From positions 128,001-192,000 of the forward strand of contig CAVTUQ010000037.1 of the NCBI GenBank assembly GCA_963737905.1: a DNA stretch of 64,000 nucleotides. Direction: 5' to 3'. Positions 5,540-49,590 of the stretch are shown in pieces. A model generated the notes under the pieces. It was given only the letters and a program-made list of their open reading frames with translations, was not told where the DNA came from and ran no database searches. Position 1 is the stretch's first letter. Every line of letters starts with the position of its first letter. Source of the DNA: an uncultured delta proteobacterium (GTDB lineage Bacteria > Desulfobacterota > Binatia > UBA9968). A program made the position numbers and the translations under genes.

Positions 5540-5554
5540 TGGCATAACGCTTGC
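5540..5554 (+). promoter_or_regulatory. Sigma54 -24/-12 promoter
   Basis: TGGCATAACGCTTGC gives exact GG-N10-GC spacing. An IHF-like GATCAACACATTA at 5502-5514 lies between it and the UAS. Confidence 0.7.
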
Positions 5555-5874: not shown

Positions 5875-6876
5875 ATGGTGAGCACATCGTGGATGAAAAA
5901 CATCATTAGGCTTGTGGGGGTTTTTTTGGGCCTGCTCGCGGGCGGCGCGGTTGGGAGCGCGCAGCAGCCGGTAAAAACCTGGAAGATCGGCGTGCTGGTG
6001 TCCAGCACACAAGCGTTGAACGCTGCGCGCGACGAAGGCTTGCGTCAGGGACTGCGCGACCTGGGCTACGAAGAGGGCAAGAACATTACCATGGAGTACC
6101 GTTATGCCGAAGGCAAGACGGACCGATTAGATAAACTCGCGCGCGAGTTAGTCGAGCAAAAAGTCGATGTCATCGTTGTGGGCGGCACCAGCGTGGCCGT
6201 TGCCGCCAAGAAAGCGACCAGCACCATTCCCATTGTCGTGGCCGGCGCCGGAGATCTGGTTGAGGCGGGACTCATTAAGAGTTTCATGTACCCCGGCGGC
6301 AATGTCACCGGCGTAGCGAGAATGTCCTCGGACTTTTTCGGCGCGCGACTGAAACTCATCAAGGAGATACTTCCCAAGACGGCTCAAGTAACCGCCCTTT
6401 CGAATCCAAAAAATCCCGGCCATGGCCGCAACCTCAAAGATGCAGAGCTCGGCGCTCGGGCTATGGGCCTCACGTTTCAATCAGTGACGGCTCAAAATGC
6501 CAACGAGTTGGACAGCGCGATTGCTGCTGCCGCCAAGGGCGGCGCGGGCGCTCTGTTCGTGATGACGGACGCCCTTTTCAACAGTCACCTGGCGCGGATT
6601 GCCCAAGCATCGATCAAAACCCAGCTCCCATCGGTTTACGACCGAACCGGATTTGTCGAGGCAGGCGGGTTGATAAGTTACGGAGTGAACCTGCCCGATT
6701 TATCTCGGCGCGCGGCTGAGTACGTCGACCAGATTTTCAAAGGCGCCAAGCCGGGGGATCTGACTCTGGTACAGCCGACGAAGTTCGATCTCGCGCTCAA
6801 TCTCAAGACAGCCAACCAGATCGGCATCACGATTCCGCCCGAGGTGCTCAACCGGGCAGTGAAGGTGATCAGATAA
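5875..6876 (+). CDS. Orphan ABC-type substrate-binding protein (PF04392-like) #1
   Basis: Signal peptide, then GLRDLGYEEGKN, PGGNVTG and NLKTANQIGITIPP; RBS GGAGG precedes ATG 5875. Confidence 0.88.
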   Translation: MVSTSWMKNIIRLVGVFLGLLAGGAVGSAQQPVKTWKIGVLVSSTQALNAARDEGLRQGLRDLGYEEGKNITMEYRYAEGKTDRLDKLARELVEQKVDVIVVGGTSVAVAAKKATSTIPIVVAGAGDLVEAGLIKSFMYPGGNVTGVARMSSDFFGARLKLIKEILPKTAQVTALSNPKNPGHGRNLKDAELGARAMGLTFQSVTAQNANELDSAIAAAAKGGAGALFVMTDALFNSHLARIAQASIKTQLPSVYDRTGFVEAGGLISYGVNLPDLSRRAAEYVDQIFKGAKPGDLTLVQPTKFDLALNLKTANQIGITIPPEVLNRAVKVIR

Positions 6877-6919
6877 TTTCGGATTGCGAATTTCGAATTT
6901 CGGATTGAGAAACAAAACG

Positions 6920-7942
6920 ATGGAACAAGTTCGGATCGCCTCAATGAACGTTACTTTAAAATCCGCGCTCCGCAATCTCAAATCCGCAATTCTTCTAGCC
7001 GCTATGCTCCTAGCGCTTTGCCCGTCCGCTAAAGCGCAACAGCAGAAGCTTTACCGCATCGGGGTTCTTTTTCCAGGTGGACCATTGTCTGAGACTGTTG
7101 ATGGGCTTCGGAAAGGGTTAAAGGAACTGGGATTCGAAGAAGGCAAAGAATTCACTCTAACAATCCGAGATACCAAGGGCGATGCAAAGGCTGCGGCTGA
7201 TGCTGCCAGGACCTTCGAGCAGGAGAAAGTCAACTTAATATACGCCATCGCCAGTTCTGTCATCGTTGCGGCCAAGGAAGCAACGCAGAACGTCCCCATC
7301 GTTTTCTCCATCGGCACCGATCCGGTAGCCATGGGATTAGTAAACGACTTTTCGAAACCGGGAGGACGGCTCACCGGTGTTCACTACCTCGTCAGAGATC
7401 TTACGGCGAAGCGCCTTGAGATCCTGAAAGAGATCGTTCCAAAGGTCAGTCGGGTGATGACATTTTATGACCCAAGCAGCGGTATTGGCGTCGAGGGGGC
7501 AAAGTTGGCGCAGGAAGAGGCCAAGCGGTTAGGACTCAAGTTTATTGAACGCCACGTCAGTTCCGCCGAGGAACTTCGCAAAGGGCTGCAGGACCTCAAA
7601 GCCGGTGAGGCGGACGCCTTTTTTTACATCCCGGACCCGATAGTGGTGGGTCAGGCGCAATTAATCATCGACACGGCAAAAGCTAAGAAGCTGCCGAGTA
7701 TGTTTCAAGACGAAAGTCTGGTCGTCAAAGGGGCTCTAGCCAGTTATGGCCAGAGCTACCATGGGATCGGCCGGCTTTCTGCAAAATACGTGCAGAAAGT
7801 TCTAAGCGGGACCCATCCCAAGGATCTCAAGATTGAGACGGTCGACAACGTGGAGCTGGTCATCAATCTCAAAACCGCAAAGGAGCTGGGGTTGGCGATC
7901 CCGCCCAACGTGCTCACGCGGGCACAAAAAGTGATCAGATAG
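6920..7942 (+). CDS. Orphan ABC-type substrate-binding protein (PF04392-like) #2
   Basis: GLKELGFEEG, DPVAMGLV..PGGRLTG, INLKTAKELGLAIPP. The start codon is uncertain. Confidence 0.87.
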   Translation: MEQVRIASMNVTLKSALRNLKSAILLAAMLLALCPSAKAQQQKLYRIGVLFPGGPLSETVDGLRKGLKELGFEEGKEFTLTIRDTKGDAKAAADAARTFEQEKVNLIYAIASSVIVAAKEATQNVPIVFSIGTDPVAMGLVNDFSKPGGRLTGVHYLVRDLTAKRLEILKEIVPKVSRVMTFYDPSSGIGVEGAKLAQEEAKRLGLKFIERHVSSAEELRKGLQDLKAGEADAFFYIPDPIVVGQAQLIIDTAKAKKLPSMFQDESLVVKGALASYGQSYHGIGRLSAKYVQKVLSGTHPKDLKIETVDNVELVINLKTAKELGLAIPPNVLTRAQKVIR

Positions 7943-8045
7943 CCGGGCGAAACGCGTGGCGTGAGAAAGTGGGTAGACGGGAATGTCTTTTTGCGTTTTC
8001 TGGTTTCTATGGGTTAAGAGAGCCTAGCGCAAAATCTGAAATAGA

Positions 8046-10460
8046 ATGTTTCAAAAACTGAAATCCAAATTCCAAAATTTTTCCTTCCCCCGGGTTCTTG
8101 GACGGCGGCGCGGGCGACTGGTTCGCGATTACTTCTTTATCTCCGTGCTGCTGATCGGCGGCGGGTTGATCACGAGCGGCTTGGTCGAAATATATTTCCG
8201 TTATCTTGAAAGCCGCGAACAATTGGCTGCAATTCAGAAAGAGGTCGCTACCGGAGCGGCCGTTAAAATCGAGCGGTTCGTGCAAGAAATTCACAACACC
8301 TTGAAGGGAGCGACCAAGAGCCGTGAGATCGCACCCAAAGGGTTGACGACGGAATTTCGCTTTGAGCTCGAAAAGCTTCTTTTAATCGCCCCGGCGGTCA
8401 CTGAAGCGCTGGCGCTCGACGAAAAGGGCGCGATCCGGGTACAGGCTTCGCGCTTGCGCACGGTGCTTCCCGAAGCCAAACGAGATCTTTCCACCGCGCC
8501 GCCCTTTCTAACGGCGAAGCAAGGTAAATCCTATTTTGGTCCGGTTCACTTTGTCCGAGGCTCGGAACCTTACATGACCATTGCCGTACCGATAGAGCGC
8601 TTTGCCGGCGACGTTATCGGCGTGCTGCAGGCCGAAGTGAATCTCAAATACATCGGCGACGTGGTCTCGGCCATCACGGTCGGGAAAGCGGGCTACGCTT
8701 ATGCCGTTACCCAGACCGGCGAGCTGATCGCCCATCCGGATATCAGTCTCGTTCTACAGAGACGCAACGTAGCGTTGCTCGATCAAGTCAAAGCAGCCTT
8801 TCAGACGAGCCCTGGGAAACCCGCGTCCAATGCGATTATAACCGAGAACTTGCAAGGCAAAAGCGTTCTCGCTTCGTTCGCGCTGATTCCAGGTCTGGAC
8901 TGGGCGGTCATTATAGAACGACCCGTCGCAGAGGCCTATGAAACGCTTTACGCGTCCATGCTGCGAACCTCGACATTGTTCTTGATCGGTCTCGGTATGG
9001 CGCTGATCGCCAGCTGGTTCCTCGCGCGACGAGTCGTCCGTCCCGTCCGGATCCTGCGCGAAGGAGTGGAGCGCATCGGCACCGGCGATCTGGGTTATCG
9101 TCTCGATCTGAAGACTGGCGACGAGATCGAGGTTTTGGCCGACGAGTTCAACAAGATGACCACCCAGCTCCAAGAGTCTTACAGCAACTTGGAGCAAAAG
9201 GTCGAAGACCGGACACGAGAACTTACCGAGTCCTTGGAGCAACAGACCGCAACGAGTGAGATTCTAGGAGTAATCACCAGTTCGCATACCGATGTCCAGC
9301 CGGTTCTCGATGCGGTAGCGGAAAAAGCTGCACGACTGTGCGACGCCAATGATACGCAAATCTTTCGACTCGAAGGCGATTTCCATCGCCGGGTGGCTTC
9401 GTTTGGACCACTACCAGCGCCGGACTTGACCGAGTTGTTTCCCGTGAACCGAGACACTGTGAGCGGCCGCTCCATCTTAGAGCACCGAAGCATCCACGTT
9501 CATGACTTGGCTGCGCAAGTCGACAACGAATATCCAGCTTCGAGGATTTATCTCGAACGGTTCGGCACTCGAACTATTCTTGCCATACCACTTCTGCGTG
9601 AAGGAACACCGATCGGTGGGATAGTGATCCGCCGCACCGAGGTCCGCCCGTTTTCTGAAAAACAGATCGCCTTACTTAAAACCTTCGCCGACCAGGCCGT
9701 GATCGCCATCGAGAACGTCCGCCTGTTCCAGGAAATCCAGGACAAGAATGAGCAGCTCGAAGCCGCGAACCGTCACAAGTCGCAGTTTCTCGCTAATGTC
9801 AGCCATGAGCTGCGGACACCACTTAACTCCATCATCGGATTTACCCGAATTGTTCTGCGCCGGGTCGGCGCGCAAATTCCCGATCTGCAAAAGGAGAATC
9901 TCCAGAAGGTTCTGATCAGCTCGGAACATCTGCTCAACCTGATCAACGAGCTGCTTGACCTGGCGAAGATCGAATCCGGCCGGATGGAGGTGTACGCCGA
10001 AACCTTCCAACTGAACGACGTAGTCCGAATGGCGACGTCAACCGTGGAGCCGATGTTGAAGGATGGTCGCGTTCGTTTAGTGACCGAGATCGCCCCGGAC
10101 ATCCCACCGTTGAAAACCGATCGAGACAAACTCAAGCAGGCCGTGCTGAATCTTTTGAGCAACGCCGCGAAGTTCACCGAGAAAGGAGAGATCAAGGTTG
10201 CGGCATGGCAGGAAAACGGGAACGTAAAGCTTACCGTTTCCGACACCGGCATCGGTATGAAAAAAGAGGCTCTGGATTATATCTTCGAGGAGTTCCGCCA
10301 GGCGGATATGTCGAGCACACGGAAGTACGGCGGCACCGGGCTCGGCCTAGCGATCGTAAAGAGGTTCATCAATCTCATGGGTGGCGATATCGGCGTTGAT
10401 AGTGAAGTCGGCAAAGGCTCGAAATTCACGATCACGATCCCGATGGTTTTGAAAACGTAA
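8046..10460 (+). CDS. Sensor histidine kinase (TM-Cache-TM-HAMP-GAF-HisKA-HATPase)
   Basis: Two TM helices flank a Cache-like domain (YAYAV..GELIAHPD). Then HAMP (DEIEVLADEFNKM), GAF, H-box SHELRTPL and the N/G1/F/G2 boxes. Confidence 0.93.
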   Translation: MFQKLKSKFQNFSFPRVLGRRRGRLVRDYFFISVLLIGGGLITSGLVEIYFRYLESREQLAAIQKEVATGAAVKIERFVQEIHNTLKGATKSREIAPKGLTTEFRFELEKLLLIAPAVTEALALDEKGAIRVQASRLRTVLPEAKRDLSTAPPFLTAKQGKSYFGPVHFVRGSEPYMTIAVPIERFAGDVIGVLQAEVNLKYIGDVVSAITVGKAGYAYAVTQTGELIAHPDISLVLQRRNVALLDQVKAAFQTSPGKPASNAIITENLQGKSVLASFALIPGLDWAVIIERPVAEAYETLYASMLRTSTLFLIGLGMALIASWFLARRVVRPVRILREGVERIGTGDLGYRLDLKTGDEIEVLADEFNKMTTQLQESYSNLEQKVEDRTRELTESLEQQTATSEILGVITSSHTDVQPVLDAVAEKAARLCDANDTQIFRLEGDFHRRVASFGPLPAPDLTELFPVNRDTVSGRSILEHRSIHVHDLAAQVDNEYPASRIYLERFGTRTILAIPLLREGTPIGGIVIRRTEVRPFSEKQIALLKTFADQAVIAIENVRLFQEIQDKNEQLEAANRHKSQFLANVSHELRTPLNSIIGFTRIVLRRVGAQIPDLQKENLQKVLISSEHLLNLINELLDLAKIESGRMEVYAETFQLNDVVRMATSTVEPMLKDGRVRLVTEIAPDIPPLKTDRDKLKQAVLNLLSNAAKFTEKGEIKVAAWQENGNVKLTVSDTGIGMKKEALDYIFEEFRQADMSSTRKYGGTGLGLAIVKRFINLMGGDIGVDSEVGKGSKFTITIPMVLKT

Positions 10461-10564
10461 AGGGTAAGGAGTGAGGCGTGAGGGGTTAGGCGTAAGGAGT
10501 GGAGCAAGGCGTGAAGCGTACGCCTAACGCCTGACCCCTACGTATCTCCTGAAAGGATAAGAAC

Positions 10565-10930
10565 ATGTCAAAGAAAATCGTTTTGGTGGTCGATGATACC
10601 GAATGGAACCGGGACTTGGTTGTCCAGCTCCTGGAGGATGACTATACCGTCTTGCAGGCCGTCGATGGTGAAGAGGCGGTGAGAAAGACTCAGGAGGATA
10701 AACCCGATCTCATTCTCATGGATCTTGGAATGCCGGTGATGGACGGCTGGGAGGCAACCCGGAAAATAAAAGCCAACGATGCTTTGAAGCATATCCCGAT
10801 TATCGCCGTCACGTCTCACGCTATGGTCGGCGACGAGATCGACGCGCGTAAAGCTGGCTGCGACGACTACCTTCCAAAACCGATCGATGAAAATGAACTC
10901 CTGAATAAGATCAAGAAGTTCCTCGCGTGA
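10565..10930 (+). CDS. Single-domain response regulator (DivK/CheY-like)
   Basis: VVDD, LMDLGMPVMDG, KPID. Confidence 0.92.
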   Translation: MSKKIVLVVDDTEWNRDLVVQLLEDDYTVLQAVDGEEAVRKTQEDKPDLILMDLGMPVMDGWEATRKIKANDALKHIPIIAVTSHAMVGDEIDARKAGCDDYLPKPIDENELLNKIKKFLA

Positions 10931-10938
10931 TCTTTAGA

Positions 10939-10989
10939 CCTTCGGCTCGACTGCTCTCGACCTGAGCTCGGGTCGAAGGCAGGACAGGG
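10939..10989. repeat. CTTCGAC...CTGAGC...GTCGAAG-type REP-like element
   Basis: tcgacc-tgagctc-gggtcga hairpin core; related sequences at ~13135-13160 and ~14461-14527. Confidence 0.45.
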
Positions 10990-11095
10990 TTAGATTGCTG
11001 ATTCTCGATTAGAATTGGGAAAGGCTATGAACAAAAGGTCGTCGCCGTTTTGACCGAAATACGAAAAAATCGAAAGTCCAAAATAAGGCTCTAGG

Positions 11096-12053
11096 ATGAA
11101 ACTTTTTAGGCTTATCGCGATCGCTGTGGCGCTTATGGTAGGCGCGGCTCTCGCCGGCGCCCAATTCCCCGCGTAGGGATCCTCTTTATTGGCGGTCGCG
11201 ATCAACCGCATCTTGAAGCGTTTAAACAAGGACTGCGCGATCGTGGATACGTAGAAGGTAAAAACATCGCTCTGGAATACCGTTATGCCGAAGGCAGAGA
11301 AGATCGACTCCCTGAGCTCGCTGCTGAGTTAGTTCAGGTCAAGGTCGACGTCATAGTTGTTACGGCCGATATTAGTGCTCAGGCGGCCCAACGGGCGACA
11401 AAGACTATACCCATCGTCGTGACAACCGGGGACCCAGTTACGTGGGGACTAGCCGACAGCTTGGCCAAACCGGGTGGCAACGTTACGGGGCTCAGTGTTC
11501 TTTTAGCGGATTTAAGCGGCAAGCGTGTGGAAATCCTTAAAGAGACTTTTCCAAAGTTGACTCGCGTGGCCGCCTTGTGGAACCCGACCGGAAGAGTAGC
11601 GTCGCCTGTATTTAAGGAAACCAGTGCGGCTGCGCAGGCTCTCTCTTTGCAGCTTCATTCCTTCGAGGTTCAAACGCTCCAAGATATTGAAAAGGCGCTC
11701 GTGGAGATACCAAAGCTACGGTCCACTGCGCTTCTCGTGCTTTTGACTCCCTTGGTAACTCTTCACTCGAAGCGGATTGTCGAGCTGGCGCTTAAGCAAC
11801 ATTTGCCTGGCATGTATCCGACGAGACAATTTGCGGAGGAAGGCGGCCTCATGGCCTATGGACCCCTAGTTGGTGATTTGTATCGACGCGCTGCCACCTA
11901 CGTAGACAAAATTCTCAAAGGCGCCAAGCCCGCCGACCTGCCCGTAGAGCAGCCGATGAGGTTCGAATTCATCATCAATCAAGACCGCCAAGCAGATTGG
12001 ATTAATCATTCCACCGAATGTATCTAGCGAGAGCGGATAGGGTCATAAAATGA
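11096..12053 (+). pseudogene. Orphan PF04392-like binding protein #3, frameshifted (near 11165, 11980, 12022)
   Basis: Signal peptide MKLFRLIAIAVALMVGAALAGAQ, then another frame gives IPRVGILFIGG...GYVEGKNIALEYRY..., and the tail KTAKQIGLIIPPNV/LARADRVIK is shifted again. May be sequencing error. Confidence 0.75.
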
Positions 12054-12106
12054 CAGGCAGCAGTGAGCAGAAAACAGTAAACAGCAAAAAACGCGGACGA
12101 AATTCT

Positions 12107-13087
12107 ATGAGAAAGAAAATCATCCTCCTCGCATTAGGCACCATGCTCTTAGCTCTACGCGTTTCCGCCGAGGCGCAGCAACCAGCGAAATTTTCCCGGA
12201 TAGGCCTGTTGACGTGGGCAGCTTCCCCTCCACCCTCATCCCCTACACCCTTCGAACAAGGCTTGCGCCAATTGGGCTACGTGGAAGGTCAGAACATTGC
12301 TATTGAGCGGCGGTATGCGAATGGACAGCTGAACCGCCTTCCGGAACTCGCGGCCGACCTCGCGCGCCTCCCTCTAGACGTGATTTTGACGCAGTCCTTT
12401 CCGGCGGCTCTCGCCGCCAAGCAAGCGACCTACGACCATCCCCATCGTCGTCATGGGGGCCGGCGATCCGGTGGCGACTGGACTTGTCGCTAGCTTCGCC
12501 CGGCCAGGTGGAAACATCACCGGAGTGAGCGCCCTGGAAACGGAGCTGAGCGGCAAACGTCTGGAGCTGTTGAAAGAAGCCTTTCCCAAGTTAGCCCGCG
12601 TGGCGGTCCTCTGGAATGCGGCGGATCTTGGCATGACCCTTAAATTCGGTGAGCTGGAGCTAGCGGCGCAAGCATTGCGGGTGGCAGTGCAAGCGTTGGC
12701 GGTCCGTGAAGCCAAGGATTTCGACGGTGCTTTTCGGAGATGGTGCACAAGCGGCCGGATGCGCTGTTTGTCATCACCGACCCACTGACCCAGCTCAATC
12801 GGAAGCATCTTTTGGAATTGGCGACAAAGAGTCGGTTGCCGGCGATGTACGAAAATGCACCATACGTGGATGATGGCGGGCTCATGGCCTACGGACCGAG
12901 CCAGGCGGAGAACCTGCGAATAGCCCTCCAGCATGTCGACAAGATTCTTAAAGGCACTAAGCCGAGCGAGTTACCCATCGAGCAGCCGACGAAGTTCGAG
13001 TTCATCATCAATCTGAAGACGGCCAAGCAGATCGGCCTGACGATTCCGCCGAACGTGCTGGTGAGGGCGGACAAGGTGATCAGATGA
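12107..13087 (+). pseudogene. Orphan PF04392-like binding protein #4, frameshifted (near 12432, 12735)
   Basis: ORFs 12050..12493, 12453..12788 and 12740..13087 join into one full-length paralog. May be sequencing error. Confidence 0.78.
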
Positions 13088-13206
13088 CAGAGGTCAGAGA
13101 TCAGAAGTCAGCTGTCAGAAATCAGAGCGCAGATCTTCGACTCAACTCAGGACCGGTTTTGGATTTTCACATGCCAATTTCGGATTGGAAGAAAAGAAAA
13201 GGAGAA

Positions 13207-14259
13207 ATGGCTATGGGTGAGACATTTTATGCGCGGTTTTTGAATTCTCGTATCATCAATCGAAAACCTGAAACCCAGAATGTAAAATTGTGCGCGCTTG
13301 CCCTGGGCGCCCTGTGTTTGGCCGTTTGCTTTCCAGTCCAGGCGCAACAGCCTGCAAAGATCTGGAAGATAGGTGTCCTCGTTTCCACCTCCCGCGCCCT
13401 GAACGCATCTCGCGACGACAGCCTGTGGCAGGGGTTACGCCAGCTGGGCTACGTCGAGGGCAAGAATGTCGCTATGGAGTACCGGTATGCCGATGGGCAA
13501 CTGGATCGCTTACCCCAGCTTGCTGCAGAGCTCGTCGGGCTCAAAGTTGATGTCATTGTTGTCTCCGGCACTAGGGCAGCGGTAGCTGCCAAACAAGCCA
13601 CCAGCACGATCCCGATCGTGCTCGCTGGCGTGGGCGATCCTGTTCAGGCTGGCCTCGTTAGCAGCTTCTCACGCCCGGGTAGTAACATTACCGGGGTGGC
13701 GAGGCTTTCACCGGATTTCATCGGTAAAAGAGTGGAACTGATCAAGGAAGTCATTCCCAAGACTAACCTCATCGCGACCCTTTCGAATCCGGATAATCCG
13801 GCGCAGGCAGCAAATCTGCGTCAGATCGACATCAAGGCACGAGCGTTGGCCATCCAACTTCAAATCGTGACGGCGCGAAGCCCCAATGAATTCGAAAGCG
13901 CATTCGCAGCTGCAACCAAAGCGCGGTCAGATGCTCTTTTGTTGATGCCCGATGCCCTCTTTCACACTTACCCGTCAAAGATTGTCGAACTCGCGGCTAA
14001 GAGCCGGCTGCCAGCGATGTACGACAGGTCCGACTTCGTTGATGCGGGCGGATTGATGAGCTTCGCCGTGAATATAGCAGACTTGTCCCGCCGTGCAGCC
14101 ACCTACGTGGACCAGATTCTTAAGGGTTCCAATCCCGCTAACCTGCCTGTGGAGGAGCCGACCAGGTACGATTTGGCCGTCAACCTCAACACCGCTCACG
14201 CTCTGGAGCTCGCGATTCCTCCGAACGTGCTTGTCCGGGCGGATAAAGTCGTCAAGTGA
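13207..14259 (+). CDS. Orphan PF04392-like binding protein #5
   Basis: WKIGVLVS..ALNASRD closely parallels SBP #1; GDPVQAGLV, IPPNVLVRADKVVK. The start codon is uncertain. Confidence 0.87.
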   Translation: MAMGETFYARFLNSRIINRKPETQNVKLCALALGALCLAVCFPVQAQQPAKIWKIGVLVSTSRALNASRDDSLWQGLRQLGYVEGKNVAMEYRYADGQLDRLPQLAAELVGLKVDVIVVSGTRAAVAAKQATSTIPIVLAGVGDPVQAGLVSSFSRPGSNITGVARLSPDFIGKRVELIKEVIPKTNLIATLSNPDNPAQAANLRQIDIKARALAIQLQIVTARSPNEFESAFAAATKARSDALLLMPDALFHTYPSKIVELAAKSRLPAMYDRSDFVDAGGLMSFAVNIADLSRRAATYVDQILKGSNPANLPVEEPTRYDLAVNLNTAHALELAIPPNVLVRADKVVK

Positions 14260-14314
14260 GAAGAGGCAAGTGGCAAGTGTCGAGCGACAAGTGGATCGAG
14301 GCAGAAAAAGAACC

Positions 14315-14449
14315 ATGAAGAAAAAAATCACGCTTTTGCTCTTTGCGCTATGCTCTTTGCGCTTTGCCCTCCGGCCGAAAGCGGCCAAGCAAATCGGTCT
14401 GACGATTCCGCCGAACGTTTTAGCTAGAGCTGACAGAGTAATCCGATGA
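14315..14449 (+). pseudogene. Internally deleted relic of PF04392-like binding protein #6
   Basis: MKKKITLLLFALCSLRFALRP fused directly to the family C-terminal motif KAAKQIGLTIPPNVLARADRVIR. Confidence 0.75.
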
Positions 14450-14546
14450 CCGAGCAACCTAAACTAGTACTGAGCCCGGTCAAAGTATCCAAAACGTGTG
14501 CTGAGCAAGCAAAGTCGAAGTATCGAAAATATAAAATGGTGGAGAT

Positions 14547-15632
14547 ATGCCGAATAAAATTCTAATTGTCGACGACGAGCCGTTTAATCTCGATCTGTTG
14601 GAGCAAGAGCTCGAGGACCAGAACTATACCATCGAGCGCGCCAACGATGGCGCCGAGGCGTTGGCAAAAGTTCCCTCCTTTGAACCCGACGTCATCCTGC
14701 TCGATTACATGATGCCCAAGATGAATGGACTGGAGGTTCTAAAGCACCTTAGAGAAGATGAAAAGCACAAGAGTATTCCCGTAATCCTGCTGACGGCGAA
14801 GGCAACTCAGGAAGACAAAGTTCGCGGCCTCGACGCCGGCGCGGACGACTACGTGATCAAACCGTTCGATTCCTTCGAGCTTTTGGCGCGGGTCCGCGCG
14901 ATGATGCGGATCAAACAGATGCATGACACGTTAGATGAATGGAATCGCTCGCTCACCGAAAAGGTCAAACAGCAAGTCGACGAGCTGCAACGGGTGAACC
15001 GGCTCAAACGGTACCTCTCCCCGCAGATTGCCGAAACGATCCTCGGAGAAAATGAAAATCTTTTCAAAAGCCACCGCCGTGAAATTACTGTCGTCTTCCT
15101 CGACCTGCGCGGCTTCACTGCGTTTTCCGATAGCGCCGAACCGGAGGAAGTCATGGAAGTGCTGCGCGGTTATCATGCCGCAATGGGGAAACTCATTTTT
15201 GAGTTTGGCGGAACCCTGGAGCGTTTCGCCGGTGACGGTATCATGATTTTCTTTAACGATCCGATTCCGTGCGACGATCATACCGAGAAAGCGGTCCGCA
15301 TGGCCTTGGCCATGCAAAACCAGGTTGAGGAGCTGCGCAAAGAGTGGCTCAAAAGAGGATATGACCTTGATTTGGGAATCGGGATGGCCGCCGGGTACGC
15401 CACCCTCGGTAATATTGGCTTTGAAGGACGCATGGATTACGGCGCCATCGGCAATGTTACCAATCTCGCCGCGCGCCTCTGCTCAGAGGCAAAAGCGCGT
15501 CAGATCCTCACCAACCAGAGAACCTTGAGCAAGATAGAAAATCTCGTCGGGTATGAGCCCCTGGAAGAACTCCAATTGAAGGGTGTCGCCCGTCCAGTGG
15601 CAGCTTTTAATATCGTGAAACTGAAGCCGTGA
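14547..15632 (+). CDS. Response regulator - class III nucleotidyl (adenylate/guanylate) cyclase
   Basis: N-terminal REC, then FLDLRGFT, RFAGDGIM and IGNVTNLAARL. Confidence 0.92.
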   Translation: MPNKILIVDDEPFNLDLLEQELEDQNYTIERANDGAEALAKVPSFEPDVILLDYMMPKMNGLEVLKHLREDEKHKSIPVILLTAKATQEDKVRGLDAGADDYVIKPFDSFELLARVRAMMRIKQMHDTLDEWNRSLTEKVKQQVDELQRVNRLKRYLSPQIAETILGENENLFKSHRREITVVFLDLRGFTAFSDSAEPEEVMEVLRGYHAAMGKLIFEFGGTLERFAGDGIMIFFNDPIPCDDHTEKAVRMALAMQNQVEELRKEWLKRGYDLDLGIGMAAGYATLGNIGFEGRMDYGAIGNVTNLAARLCSEAKARQILTNQRTLSKIENLVGYEPLEELQLKGVARPVAAFNIVKLKP

Positions 15633-15763
15633 TGGGGCCTATAGCTTGTGGCTCATAGCATATGGTTCCTCGTTCCATTGATATGCCATACGCCATAAGC
15701 CATAGGCGATTTTCCGGCGACTTGACGCGGCTCCAGGCTCCGCCCTAGAATCCAGCCTTCCAC

Positions 15764-17107
15764 ATGCCAAACCGAATCTTGATCGTTGACGATGAGCCGC
15801 TGAATCTCGATCTCTTGGACCAGGAACTGGCGGACCTGGGCCATGTGACCGAACGGGCCATCGACGGATCCGAAGCCCTCGCAAAACTCGATGCTGCCAA
15901 TCCAGATCTCGTTTTACTGGATTATCAGATGCCGGGGATGAACGGCATCGAGGTTCTGAAGGAGATCCGCAAACGGGACCACAATTTGCCCGTAGTCATC
16001 ATCACCGCCTACGGTACCATTGAACGAGCCGTCGAAGCCGTAAAGGCGGGCGCCGACGACTTCATTACGAAACCCTTCGATCCGGAGCATCTCGCATTAG
16101 TGGTCAAGAAGGCGTTGGAACGAGCGCAGCTCCAATCCGAAGTGGAATTCTTCGCCCAAGAGCTTAGCGGACGCTATCGCCTCGTCGCAGGAAAGAATGC
16201 CTTGATGGTTCAGACGGTAGAGGAAGCAAAGAAGGCCGCAGGCAGCAAGTCCACGGTTTTGCTCCTGGGCGAGAGCGGCACCGGCAAGGAAATCTTCGCC
16301 CGGGCGATTCACGACTGGAGTGACCGGAGATTGAAGCCCTTCATCGCCATCAACTGTGTCGGGCTTGCCAAAGACCTTTTGGAGAGCGAGCTATTCGGTC
16401 ATGAGAAGGGTGCTTTCACCGGAGCTCATCAGCTCAAAAAGGGGAAAATGGAGCTGGCTGATGGCGGCACGGTGTTCCTGGACGAGGTCGGCGATATCGC
16501 GGCGGAGCTCCAGACCAAGCTTTTGCGTTTCCTTCAGGAGCGCGAGTTCGAACGCGTGGGCGGAACCGGGCCTATCACCGTGGACGTGAGAATCATTGCC
16601 GCGACGAATCGCGATCTTGAACAGGCGCTCAAGAACGGAACCTTTCGTGAAGATCTCTACCATCGCCTGAATGTTATCGCGATTACGCTGCCGCCTTTAC
16701 GGGAGAGAAAGGAGGATATCCCGATCCTGGCGAACTATTTTTTGCAACGGTTCTCGTCAGAGGCGAAAAAGAATTTCTCGGAAATCGCCGAGAGCACGCA
16801 GGAAAAACTCTTGGCTTACCGCTGGCCGGGGAACGTGCGCGAGCTTGCCAACGTTATCGAACGGGCAGTCGTTTTAGGGGACGGCCCGATATTGACCGTC
16901 CACCATCTACCGGTAAGGGTCATTGGCGGGCAACCGAGCAACAAGACTGAAGAATTGTCCTACCACGACGCCATCAATACCTACCGCCGCGAGCTGATCG
17001 TTACAGCGCTAGCCACTGCGCAGGGCAATCGTGCTGCGGCGGCCAAAGCGCTTGGCCTGCATAGAACTCATCTGCTGAAAATCATGAGAGCCCTTGCGAT
17101 CAACTAG
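15764..17107 (+). CDS. Sigma54-dependent response regulator (NtrC/AtoC family)
   Basis: REC, GESGTGKE, intact GAFTGA, FLDEVG, WPGNVREL and a Fis-type HTH. Confidence 0.95.
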   Translation: MPNRILIVDDEPLNLDLLDQELADLGHVTERAIDGSEALAKLDAANPDLVLLDYQMPGMNGIEVLKEIRKRDHNLPVVIITAYGTIERAVEAVKAGADDFITKPFDPEHLALVVKKALERAQLQSEVEFFAQELSGRYRLVAGKNALMVQTVEEAKKAAGSKSTVLLLGESGTGKEIFARAIHDWSDRRLKPFIAINCVGLAKDLLESELFGHEKGAFTGAHQLKKGKMELADGGTVFLDEVGDIAAELQTKLLRFLQEREFERVGGTGPITVDVRIIAATNRDLEQALKNGTFREDLYHRLNVIAITLPPLRERKEDIPILANYFLQRFSSEAKKNFSEIAESTQEKLLAYRWPGNVRELANVIERAVVLGDGPILTVHHLPVRVIGGQPSNKTEELSYHDAINTYRRELIVTALATAQGNRAAAAKALGLHRTHLLKIMRALAIN

Positions 17108-17472: not shown

Positions 17473-17502
17473 TTGACATACAATTTGTTGTGCCGTTATA
17501 AT
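17473..17502 (+). promoter_or_regulatory. Consensus sigma70 promoter with AT-rich UP region
   Basis: TTGACA-N18-TATAAT, preceded by A/T tracts. Confidence 0.8.
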
Positions 17503-17616: not shown

Positions 17617-17667
17617 ATGGCAGTAAAGAAGAAAGCCAAGAAGAAAGCCAAAAAGAAAAAAAAGTAA
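17617..17667 (+). CDS. 16-aa lysine-rich micropeptide MAVKKKAKKKAKKKKK
   Basis: Strong SD AAGGAGG 5 nt before ATG, with its own promoter and terminator. It is below the ORF-track size cutoff. Confidence 0.65.
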   Translation: MAVKKKAKKKAKKKKK

Positions 17668-17751
17668 CTAAGTTTTGAGATGTGGGGTTGCGGCGGTGAA
17701 CTGAAACCCTCCTTTATCTCAGGCGCTCGGATAGCCGTTCTGGCTATCTAG

Positions 17752-33774: not shown

Positions 33775-34503
33775 ATGCAAGGGATGTTTAAGTTGTTTTA
33801 CACCGATTTGGGCCGGACGGGTTATCCCGCAGCGCTGGCGCTGCAGGAGAGAATTGTAGAGCTGAAACAACGGGAGCCTTCGGCCGACGTGATACTTTTC
33901 GTCGAACATCCCCACGTTTATACCCTCGGTCGCGGCGGCAAGTCATCCAATCTCCTCGCTCCGCAGGAAGTTCCGGTCGTTAGGACAAGCCGTGGCGGGG
34001 ACGTCACCTACCATGGACCGGGCCAGCTGGTGATCTATCCGCTTATTGATCTACGCTCGAAGTTACGCAAGGACGTACACCGCTACCTTAGAAATTTGGA
34101 GATGAGCGTCGTCCGCACCCTGAAGGATTTTGGTCTCGACAGTGTGCAGCGCCCGCCCTACAGCGGAATCTGGATCGAGAATAGAAAAATTGCCGCTATC
34201 GGGATCGCCGTGCGTCGCGGTATTACTTTTCACGGCCTGGCTTTGAATGTGAACACGGACCTCTCCTATTTCAGTCGGATTATTCCATGCGGACTGACAT
34301 GGGCCGAAGTCACCTCGATGTCTAGGGAACTGCGGGTGGAACAAGATCAAAGTAAAGTGAAAAACAGATTTCTCCATCACTTCGCTGAACTGTTTAGCTA
34401 TAGGGATGTTAAAGAGAGTGACTCAGCCGAGGATGCGGGATGGAAGATGGAAGATGGCAATTCTCGATCCTCGATCATCAATCCTCGACCGGAAGCGTAT
34501 TAG
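33775..34503 (+). CDS. lipB: Lipoyl(octanoyl) transferase
   Basis: EHPHVYTLGR, RGGDVTYHGPGQL, HGLALNV, IIPCG. Confidence 0.95.
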   Translation: MQGMFKLFYTDLGRTGYPAALALQERIVELKQREPSADVILFVEHPHVYTLGRGGKSSNLLAPQEVPVVRTSRGGDVTYHGPGQLVIYPLIDLRSKLRKDVHRYLRNLEMSVVRTLKDFGLDSVQRPPYSGIWIENRKIAAIGIAVRRGITFHGLALNVNTDLSYFSRIIPCGLTWAEVTSMSRELRVEQDQSKVKNRFLHHFAELFSYRDVKESDSAEDAGWKMEDGNSRSSIINPRPEAY

Positions 34504-35355: not shown

Positions 35356-35468
35356 AGTCGAGGATAGAGGATCGACAATGGAGGATAGAATTTTTCAATC
35401 CTCGATCTTCCGTCTTCTATCTTAGGATGATCAAGACGAGCGATTGTAAATCACAAAAGGAGGTTGCC

Positions 35469-43602: not shown

Positions 43603-43683
43603 AAGAAAAAGGTCTCGGGTTTCAGGTTTCGGGTTTCGGGTTGAGAACGCGAGACTCCAAACTCAAAGGCTCGAAACTGGGAG

Positions 43684-49467: not shown

Positions 49468-49590
49468 CGACCTAGTAAATCATAGCGTGAGCAAACTAAG
49501 TTTTAACCAAAACGTCTCGATCTCTGGTCTGGTGTTAACTCGAGACCCGAAACCCGAGACTCGAAACTGTTAAAGCGAAGGAGCTAATTT

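Follow-up and report, generated by a model that had tools for sequence, protein, structure and literature searches.

Why are periplasmic binding protein genes of one family lined up on one strand around a sensor kinase, without a transporter of their own beside them? The question is raised by an array at positions 5875-17107 of the window, a stretch of 64,000 nucleotides from an uncultured delta proteobacterium. An earlier note had described it as six PF04392 genes or relics on one strand together with a Cache-HAMP-GAF kinase, a lone receiver, a REC-cyclase and an NtrC-type activator. Coordinates and Pfam matches agree with this inventory, and no permease or ATPase is found among the array genes, as the note had stated. 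All six PF04392 units are on the plus strand; three are intact, two are frameshifted and one is a stump of 44 aa. The features of the array are:

5540..5554, +, candidate sigma54 -24/-12 promoter at the operon head (motif scan)
5875..6876, +, SBP1, intact PF04392 protein with signal peptide (PF04392 E 9.6e-59; 58% identity to SBP5)
6875..6906, +, heptamer tandem repeat directly 3' of the SBP1 stop (TRF, period 7, 4.6 copies)
6884..7942, +, SBP2, intact PF04392 protein directly upstream of the kinase (PF04392 E 9.3e-60)
8046..10460, +, dCache_1-HAMP-GAF-HisKA-HATPase kinase (Pfam; periplasmic domain at approx. 8202-8960)
10462..10501, +, heptamer repeat 3' of the kinase stop (TRF)
10565..10930, +, single-domain receiver, a lone REC (PF00072 E 7.4e-30)
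11096..12053, +, SBP3, frameshifted in the tail and after the signal peptide (sequence, Pfam)
12107..13087, +, SBP4, two frameshifts in the assembly (three ORF pieces, PF04392 match in two)
13078..13127, +, heptamer repeat 3' of the SBP4 stop (TRF, period 7, 6.9 copies)
13084..14259, +, SBP5, intact PF04392 ORF (PF04392 E 1.7e-52)
14253..14294, +, heptamer repeat 3' of the SBP5 stop (TRF)
14315..14449, +, stump, signal peptide fused in frame to the conserved tail, 44 aa (sequence)
14547..15632, +, REC-class III nucleotide cyclase (PF00072 and PF00211)
15681..15704, +, heptamer repeat in the gap between cyclase and activator (TRF; one 7-base unit missing in related strains)
15764..17107, +, NtrC-type sigma54 activator, REC-AAA-HTH (PF00158 E 1.2e-69)

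The true start of SBP5 is probably internal to its ORF, and that of SBP2 may be an internal ATG. The three intact ORFs score 179-203 bits against PF04392, the gathering score being 25.9. SBP2 was modelled with a pLDDT of 96 and has a type I periplasmic binding fold (TM 0.89 to 3LKV, 0.87 to 3LFT); the closest structures to the SBPs are 3LKV, 3LFT and 6HNI. The TctC family PF03401 has no match in the SBPs of the window, and the orphan expansion of Bug/TctC proteins is alike in number only. The paralogs had been described as differing in their N-terminal loops while keeping a C-terminal tail (NLKTAKQIGLTIPPNVLxRADKVI). The tail is indeed conserved, but family-wide: its quoted form is matched exactly only in SBP4, it is present in nearly all of 90 listed paralog 3' ends and it can be made out in 3LKV, an ABC-type protein of V. 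cholerae, which rules it out as a docking signal peculiar to this locus. Variability is not confined to the N-terminus; 38 loop positions after beta-strands, picked by hand on the model, have a mean conservation of 0.35 compared to 0.59 for the body.

The kinase carries its H-box at His587. Its periplasmic part has a dCache fold according to structure comparison and Pfam and is an extracytoplasmic domain preceding HAMP and the kinase core (Pfam and fold, with membrane segments assigned by eye). The dCache_1AA motif of PctA includes Y144 and D173, with W128, in the sections of the source drawn on here (PMC11245519). In the alignment with PctA, the kinase dCache has Val at the Tyr position and Glu at the Asp position, and W128 is outside the aligned stretch. 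The placing of the motif residues on this alignment is in part provisional. At these two positions, the kinase dCache departs from the motif of dCache_1AA direct amino-acid sensors. Kinase matches are present in all 36 genomes of the same family; of 57 informative loci, 45 have a REC domain after the kinase. The cyclase contains the metal-binding Asp pair and NxxxR; its base-specifying positions look atypical against the usual consensus, so that its product is uncertain. The activator has an intact GAFTGA at residue 216, and none of its best 25 matches reached an NCBIfam equivalog cut-off. Within the window by itself, the sigma54 motif is no more frequent than chance would give (3 matches, 4.68 expected). 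It was found before 6 of 87 PF04392 genes genome-wide compared to 0.68% of random windows, and at 10 of 28 operon heads of related loci compared to 0 of 76 inner windows. Scans for sigma70 promoters and terminators gave chance level only.

The array is one part of a much larger family. The earlier note had assigned six genes to one kinase; instead, the repertoire is genome-wide, with 108 PF04392 loci in 40 clusters, three of them larger than this array (14, 14 and 9 genes), and four kinases of the same dCache_1 subfamily. The intact paralogs (n = 58) have a median identity of 49%.

The link between PF04392 and kinases is specific to this one dCache_1 subfamily. A PF04392 gene is directly upstream of all four subfamily kinases in the genome, and the remaining three of seven dCache_1 genes are on contigs without a PF04392 match. 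At a fifth locus (C26), an SBP tail is apparently fused to the post-HAMP helix of a kinase. It was rejected as natural single-chain sensor because its two portions have no membrane segment between them; a deletion is its probable origin. Four of the 40 clusters adjoin such a kinase compared to 0.19 expected, and 36 lie away from such a receptor. Enrichment near any kinase is weak (7 of 40 clusters, 2.5 expected, four of the seven being the dCache ones) and there is none near cyclases (1/40) or receivers (3/40). The enrichment for which the earlier note had proposed a test with Cache/GAF kinases and cyclases thus applies to dCache kinases, weakly to kinases at large and not to cyclases.

Co-location is conserved well beyond this genome. 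PF04392 is present in 73 of 80 related loci and ends at most 800 nt from the receptor in 54 of the 66 loci with at least 900 nt upstream; all 281 matches in related loci are co-oriented. Six of six proteobacterial plasmid receptors examined (of 72 records) have an adjacent PF04392 gene. Five of them are dCache-HAMP-cyclases, namely of Rhizobium (2), Methylobacterium, Microvirga and Sinorhizobium fredii, and one is a dCache-HAMP-kinase of Diaphorobacter. As a control, 1 of 18 distant dCache receptors had a PF04392 neighbour; this set came from a phylum search with a kinase-core-dominated alignment, used for the control alone, and left out 10 loci with a dCache score <40 bits and one with 208 nt upstream. 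Full-length PF04392 was found in 10 of 12 receptor-bearing and in 0 of 14 receptor-free genomes, twelve of the latter belonging to one genus. The loci and genomes counted are kin, and the sets overlap between searches. A single cognate SBP clade per kinase was rejected on a quick tree and on the occurrence of the SBP2 clade in 18 of 80 related loci (directly upstream in 7). A quick tree also groups SBP2 with ABC-type and DASS-linked members, which speaks against a co-receptor role. At E up to 1e-30, the subfamily dCache is represented by 413 clusters. The ESM Atlas returned generic dCache clusters only. Supplements aside, no literature on a PF04392-dCache pairing was found.

Modelling of an SBP with the periplasmic kinase domain, proposed as a check in the earlier note, gave a predicted contact. 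The complex of SBP2 and dCache scored 0.61, whereas the best of three controls scored 0.01. For scale, 116 of 157 solved pairs and 2 of 215 mismatched ones came up to this mark, a rough calibration given the alignments used here. The runs share at least 84% of contacts, with a partner pLDDT of at least 88, for one pair at 1:1 stoichiometry; the score may stem from a resemblance to SBP-Cache complexes already solved, LuxP-LuxQ among them. Only 4 of the 25 interface residues are in the quoted tail, the others being in the stretch just before it, in a helix after the first crossover and in a loop. The predicted interface includes K125, E128, E267 and R295 of SBP2 (mature numbering) and S83, R84, E122 and N147 of the dCache domain (domain numbering), which spans kinase residues 53-305 or so. 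The modelled interface is better conserved than its surroundings on the SBP side (0.77 compared to 0.59, p 0.0006, 58 paralogs) and on the dCache side (0.76 compared to 0.64, p 0.006). Among SBPs of other genomes, 127 of 148 have an interface nearer to the consensus than the remainder of the protein. Six of seven plasmid SBPs linked to dCache match 14-16 of the 25 positions, and two ABC-linked members match 4 and 5. SBP1 (9/25) and SBP2 (8/25) match the pool consensus poorly as well. In the SBP2 clade, conservation of the interface hardly exceeds that of the remaining protein (0.70 compared to 0.68). Docking through a shared surface is therefore backed by the SBP2 model and by conservation of that surface, but the surface is mostly outside the tail and diverges in SBP1 and SBP2, so that interchangeability of the SBPs is only a proposal.

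The array is likely to be a conserved operon for signalling, with PF04392 proteins as periplasmic co-receptors for one dCache_1 subfamily. The variable cleft of an SBP would take up a small ligand, and the loaded protein, going by the complex model, would dock on the dCache domain via a conserved near-hinge surface. By analogy with known SBP-kinase systems, cleft closure would then alter kinase activity through HAMP and GAF. Judging by gene order, the kinase may pass phosphoryl groups to the sigma54 activator as well as to the lone receiver and the REC-cyclase. The sigma54 promoter of the operon is probably a target of this activator. A linked DASS transporter that binds cNMP is probably under the control of the cyclic nucleotide, and a class II phosphodiesterase may serve as off-switch. 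Several SBPs probably feed each receptor, and SBP genes come and go between the fixed signalling genes. Possible, though doubtful as a whole, is a wider version: tens of PF04392 proteins with hypervariable clefts, encoded in 40 clusters and exchanged as whole genes at their conserved 3' ends, would form a genome-wide pool that serves the four dCache kinases by a shared hinge-side surface. Its output would feed back on the operon via sigma54 and gate an SBP-dependent DASS transporter via the cyclic nucleotide, and the Rhizobium dCache cyclases would be SBP-controlled too.

Alternatively, only a few receptor-adjacent SBPs could be functional co-receptors, and the rest could be a largely neutral expansion that propagates itself by birth and death, the conserved 3' end and the heptamers acting as the sites of recombination that drive it. 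Of the 108 loci, 50 are broken or partial, including 22 relics. A period-7 repeat comes after 40 of 90 SBP genes compared to 165 of 3340 other ORFs. At synonymous sites, identity is higher in the tail (0.42, 10 sites) than elsewhere (0.33, 97 sites), and PF04392 arrays carry unrelated cargo genes as judged by eye. In related-strain contigs (88% likeness, 4 of 20 listed runs), a contig of run X4 joins 11154 to 12051 and is without the SBP3 body, and a contig of the same run joins 14255 to 14547 and skips the stump. However, 28 of the 50 broken loci are split yet retain their full length, and contigs of run X5 have compensating indels at both breaks of SBP4, so that the label 'relic' used in the earlier note may partly reflect assembly error. 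Genes are split in 14 of 74 cases at long-contig loci and in 9 of 142 cases at other loci. The 58 intact paralogs keep scaffold and modelled interface while their clefts diverge, which requires selection. Neutral turnover of most of the pool is unlikely; it would be compatible with a co-receptor role of the receptor-adjacent genes.

The pool could also serve mainly for uptake. SBPs would then hand a range of solutes to the cNMP-binding DASS transporter, along the lines suggested for Bug/TctC orphans and TctAB, and the kinase would read just one or a few SBPs in order to turn uptake on, as BctC-BctE does. A DASS gene with its own PF04392 gene is located ∼38 kb from the kinase, which partly bears out the earlier concern that the SBPs serve a permease elsewhere; of TrpY-type ABC permeases none was found in the genome. 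DASS is present in 18 of 24 genomes of the same family and lies at most 8 kb from the kinase in 15 of 80 related loci, with PF04392 directly upstream of it in 16 of 20 informative loci. Docking at the hinge side would keep the cleft face accessible, and BctC is described as serving transporter and kinase alike in the sections of PMC9602780 drawn on here. On the other hand, the DASS-linked SBPs form a dedicated clade of 50-80% identity, annotated proteobacterial loci list the SBP-dCache pair alone without such a transporter, and what the pool conserves is the surface modelled on dCache, while the cleft loops vary. We regard this uptake role as quite improbable.

Although Trp, Tyr and Phe are the ligands recorded for the family (PMC10443332, in the part drawn on here), the closest structures come from this group and the genome is 87% complete, it is highly improbable, and already largely refuted, that the SBPs are ordinary subunits of a TrpXYZ-type aromatic-amino-acid importer with its permease elsewhere or unassembled and their co-location due to chance, since two permease queries gave 0 matches to a TrpY-type ABC permease in the genome against 108 PF04392 loci, only 2 of 61 genomes have one, the SBPs score 153-160 bits on the TrpX equivalog NF041285 at a cut-off of 390, and the dCache-subfamily linkage is far above chance and spans phyla. 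The nine PF02653 matches in the genome form four tandem pairs; the cognate single permease and ATPase of a TrpXYZ-type importer were not found there.

The co-receptor reading bears on wider questions. The purpose of large orphan SBP expansions is called unknown in the consulted sections of PMC9602780 and PMC5994714. The sensing hypothesis is directly testable here, as it comes with a defined receptor subfamily, an interface prediction and, in culturable Rhizobium, a version of only two genes (RL_RS30325 with RL_RS30330 in R. johnstonii 3841). If true, many proteins annotated as 'ABC transporter substrate-binding protein' would move to signalling, a dCache subfamily without known pocket motif would be explained, and SBP control would extend to class III cyclases, a receptor class absent from the consulted sections of PMC8050422.

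If it works as proposed, the PF04392-dCache pairing would be a further form of a known kind, the SBP-stimulated receptor. The consulted sections of the review PMC8050422 list LuxP/LuxQ, HptA/HptS, ChvE/VirA and CBP/ChiS as SBP-stimulated sensor kinases with dCache-like domains, as well as NspS/MbaA. Systems of the LuxP/LuxQ kind resemble the array in that the SBP gene is beside the receptor gene and the receptor has a periplasmic dCache-type domain; by analogy, the SBP would carry the ligand specificity here too. In contrast, PF04392 has 0 matches in this review, its four receptor classes are without class III nucleotide cyclases, the output in five of the six plasmid loci here, and the kinase systems listed in it have one SBP each compared to 58 intact paralogs and four receptors. 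TrpXYZ-type ABC importers (3LFT, 3LKV and CD0873, 6HNI) share the fold (TM 0.85-0.89) and a recognisable C-terminal tail with the SBPs, but a cognate permease was not found here and two ABC-linked members are without most modelled docking residues. In Bordetella, BctC with BctCBA and BctDE is similar, as an SBP family outnumbers transporters and an SBP signals via a kinase possibly controlling a secondary transporter, but with the TctC family and a 2CSK_N sensor (PMC9602780, consulted sections) rather than PF04392, dCache_1, a cyclase and a cNMP-binding DASS. The orphan TTT SBPs of Rhodoplanes Z2-YC6860 are likewise a lineage-specific expansion for which sensing is one suggested role; they belong to a different family, and the sections of PMC5994714 drawn on mention no dedicated receptor subfamily or docking surface. 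Finally, E. coli Trg and B. subtilis McpC are receptors served by more than one SBP, as would hold here, yet by about three, those of Trg being borrowed from transporters (PMC8050422, same sections), whereas here a large pool of a single family is encoded with the receptor.

The genes lie where the earlier note had placed them, as open reading frames and domain matches confirmed:

window 5875-17107, + strand: array of SBP1 to SBP5 (PF04392 binding-protein genes) and a stump, with a dCache_1-HAMP-GAF kinase, a lone receiver, a REC-cyclase and a sigma54 activator

The four signalling genes are intact. Among the six PF04392 units claimed, SBP1, SBP2 and SBP5 are intact, but SBP3 and SBP4 carry frameshifts and a 44-aa stump makes up the sixth. 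The nearest relatives among records are labelled Candidatus Binatia or Deltaproteobacteria. A recent tandem duplication run was ruled out as origin of the array because the window SBPs are only 32-58% identical. The host genome G000 (6.7 Mb, 87% complete) contains 127 PF04392 matches, 125 of them over the cut-off. With our own profile, 108 gene loci in 40 clusters were counted, namely 58 intact, 28 full length but split and 22 partial. Three clusters exceed the window array, and their cargo resembles, by eye, four-helix-bundle genes and other binding proteins:

G000:C27:2778-21950: array of 14 PF04392 genes
G000:C29:83768-99763: array of 14 PF04392 genes
G000:C7:401841-412539: array of 9 PF04392 genes

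Four of the seven dCache_1 genes in the genome belong to the subfamily of the kinase, and all four have PF04392 directly upstream (4 clusters beside a subfamily kinase versus 0.19 expected under random placement); the contigs of the other three lack PF04392. The co-location proposed earlier is conserved, as PF04392 is present in 73 of 80 related loci and adjacent to 6/6 sampled plasmid receptors (6 of 72 records, picked by rank and to spread over taxa; in one record it lies on the opposite strand), namely five dCache-HAMP-cyclases and one hybrid kinase. It ends at most 800 nt upstream of the kinase in 54 of 66 related loci with enough upstream DNA, and all 281 matches in related loci are co-oriented. 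For more distant dCache receptors of the phylum the count was 1/18, in genomes where the family may be missing entirely. In 26 of 60 relatives, chosen by us, full-length PF04392 occurred in 10 of 12 receptor-bearing genomes versus 0 of 14 without the receptor (12 of these one genus), and by eye within ~2 kb of 14 of 19 receptor matches; locus and genome samples are kin and overlapping. The SBP-receptor pairing is real and conserved.

The same dCache subfamily is fused to HAMP and a cyclase on short contigs from records labelled Nitrospinota (L088) and Methanobacteriota archaeon (L089), the latter with a PF04392 tail upstream. At L157 (G000:C26:87295-89079), an SBP tail reads in frame into the post-HAMP helix and core of a kinase, with a REC-sigma54 activator gene behind it; this is apparently what a deletion left of a fifth SBP-dCache locus. 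Giant multi-GAF kinases, split into many pieces and in some cases with REC-cyclases behind them, occur at G000:C2:102810-121383, C26:53367-68096 and C3:42695-49349.

Mature SBP2, encoded directly upstream of the kinase, was modelled in complex with the dCache domain from one alignment per chain. The predicted docking on the periplasmic domain, as had been proposed, scored 0.61 versus 0.01 for the best control; runs shared at least 84% of contacts with partner pLDDT of at least 88. Of solved pairs, 116 of 157 attained this score mark, as did 2 of 215 mismatched pairs, rates only rough for the alignments used here. Since solved SBP-Cache complexes exist, resemblance to them may have contributed to the score; searching the PDB by sequence yielded no close relative of either chain. 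The predicted SBP interface (residues 97-128, 161-164, 265-272 and 291-297) would, from the secondary structure of SBP2, face away from the cleft, on the side of the hinge. Over the aligned stretch the dCache domain has no PctA amino-acid motif, in keeping with indirect sensing.

Conservation at the predicted interface was higher than elsewhere on the SBP side (0.77 versus 0.59, 58 paralogs, p 0.0006) and the dCache side (0.76 versus 0.64, p 0.006), a trend followed by 127 of 148 SBPs of other genomes; within the SBP2 clade it was no better kept than the rest. The docking consensus of the pool, over 25 interface positions, was matched at 14-16 by 6/7 dCache-linked plasmid members (Diaphorobacter 10), and at 4 and 5 by two ABC-linked members. 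Four orphan plasmid members (L119-L122, Microvirga and Bradyrhizobium), lone genes keeping 14-16 predicted docking residues, have no annotated permease or receptor within 4 kb, and two adjoin transposases. Of the claim that interchangeable SBPs share one surface, the conserved predicted surface stands, but SBP2 and SBP1 match the consensus at only 8 and 9 positions. A fully interchangeable genome-wide pool is rather unlikely. A single fixed partner clade was rejected, the SBP2 clade occurring in 18 of 80 related loci. The conserved C-terminal tail is genuine (0.83 versus 0.59 for the body), but it is family-wide and recognisable in ABC-type 3LKV, so that its conservation alone is no evidence of kinase docking. 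The model places only 4 of 25 predicted SBP interface residues in this tail.

Among 57 informative related loci, which are truncated, 45 have a receiver behind the kinase and 27 a cyclase, and 24 contain a sigma54 activator. Between kinase and cyclase, 16 of 27 loci have no SBP tail and 11 have one to four, and a near strain in sequencing run X4 lacks the SBP3 body and the stump. Therefore, SBP genes are gained and lost between fixed signalling genes. Period-7 tandem repeats directly follow the stop codon of 40/90 SBP genes versus 165/3340 other long ORFs; a literature search found no published account of them. In the window they lie at:

6875-6906, 10462-10501, 13078-13127, 14253-14294, 15681-15704: after stop codons, array
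34439-34488, 35360-35389, 43611-43642, 49537-49567: after stop codons, elsewhere

Sigma54-type sites precede 6 of 87 PF04392 genes (versus 0.68% of random windows) and occur at 10/28 operon heads versus 0/76 inner windows (mean of 0.62 after shuffling, 3 on the reverse strand). This enrichment at operon heads suggests that the activator may feed back on the array operon through a candidate site:

window 5540-5554: sigma54-type site upstream of the array, not above chance within the window

Just past the activator gene, a perfect sigma70 consensus precedes a tiny lysine-rich ORF (window 17473-17502, 17617-17668).

The strongest rival use of the SBPs is by a DASS transporter:

G000:C37:93631-97915 (L156), outside the window, ~38 kb before the array: PF04392 gene, then a cNMP-binding, TPR-like DASS transporter gene

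This gene is split in the assembly (759 aa versus ~890 aa in relatives), and a divergent class II phosphodiesterase gene and a GAF-sigma54 activator lie nearby. The transporter occurs in 18 of 24 genomes of the same family, and in 15/80 loci it lies at most 8 kb from the kinase. Upstream of it, 16 of 20 informative loci encode a dedicated SBP, four loci without 5' flank and one distant paralog being left out. The transporter is a plausible target for the cyclase. A metallo-beta-lactamase-fold hydrolase gene accompanies 14 of 80 related loci.

As for a permease encoded elsewhere, the DASS transporter has its own dedicated SBP. No ABC permease match for the SBPs was found in the host genome at its 87% completeness; the claimed absence of a cognate one concerned the locus. 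TrpY-type permeases were sought with two canonical PF04392 operons (S. meliloti and Salinivibrio), neither of which matched the host genome; one query matched 2/61 genomes, and the kinase query 36/36 same-family genomes. The nine PF02653 matches form four tandem pairs, one ~3 kb from the nine-gene array with, by eye, a separate binding-protein-like gene between. A TrpXYZ importer was rejected as the identity of the system.

PF04392 proteins are probably co-receptors of the dCache kinase, and the complex model supports the pairing. Their pairing is probably undescribed: no paper on it was found in literature judged mostly by listings, with few subscription papers, and the review PMC8050422 does not name PF04392. 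The SBP-dCache pairing would work like the LuxP/LuxQ-type SBP-stimulated kinases of that review. Once the DASS transporter is counted in, the array resembles BctC-BctDE as presented in PMC9602780.
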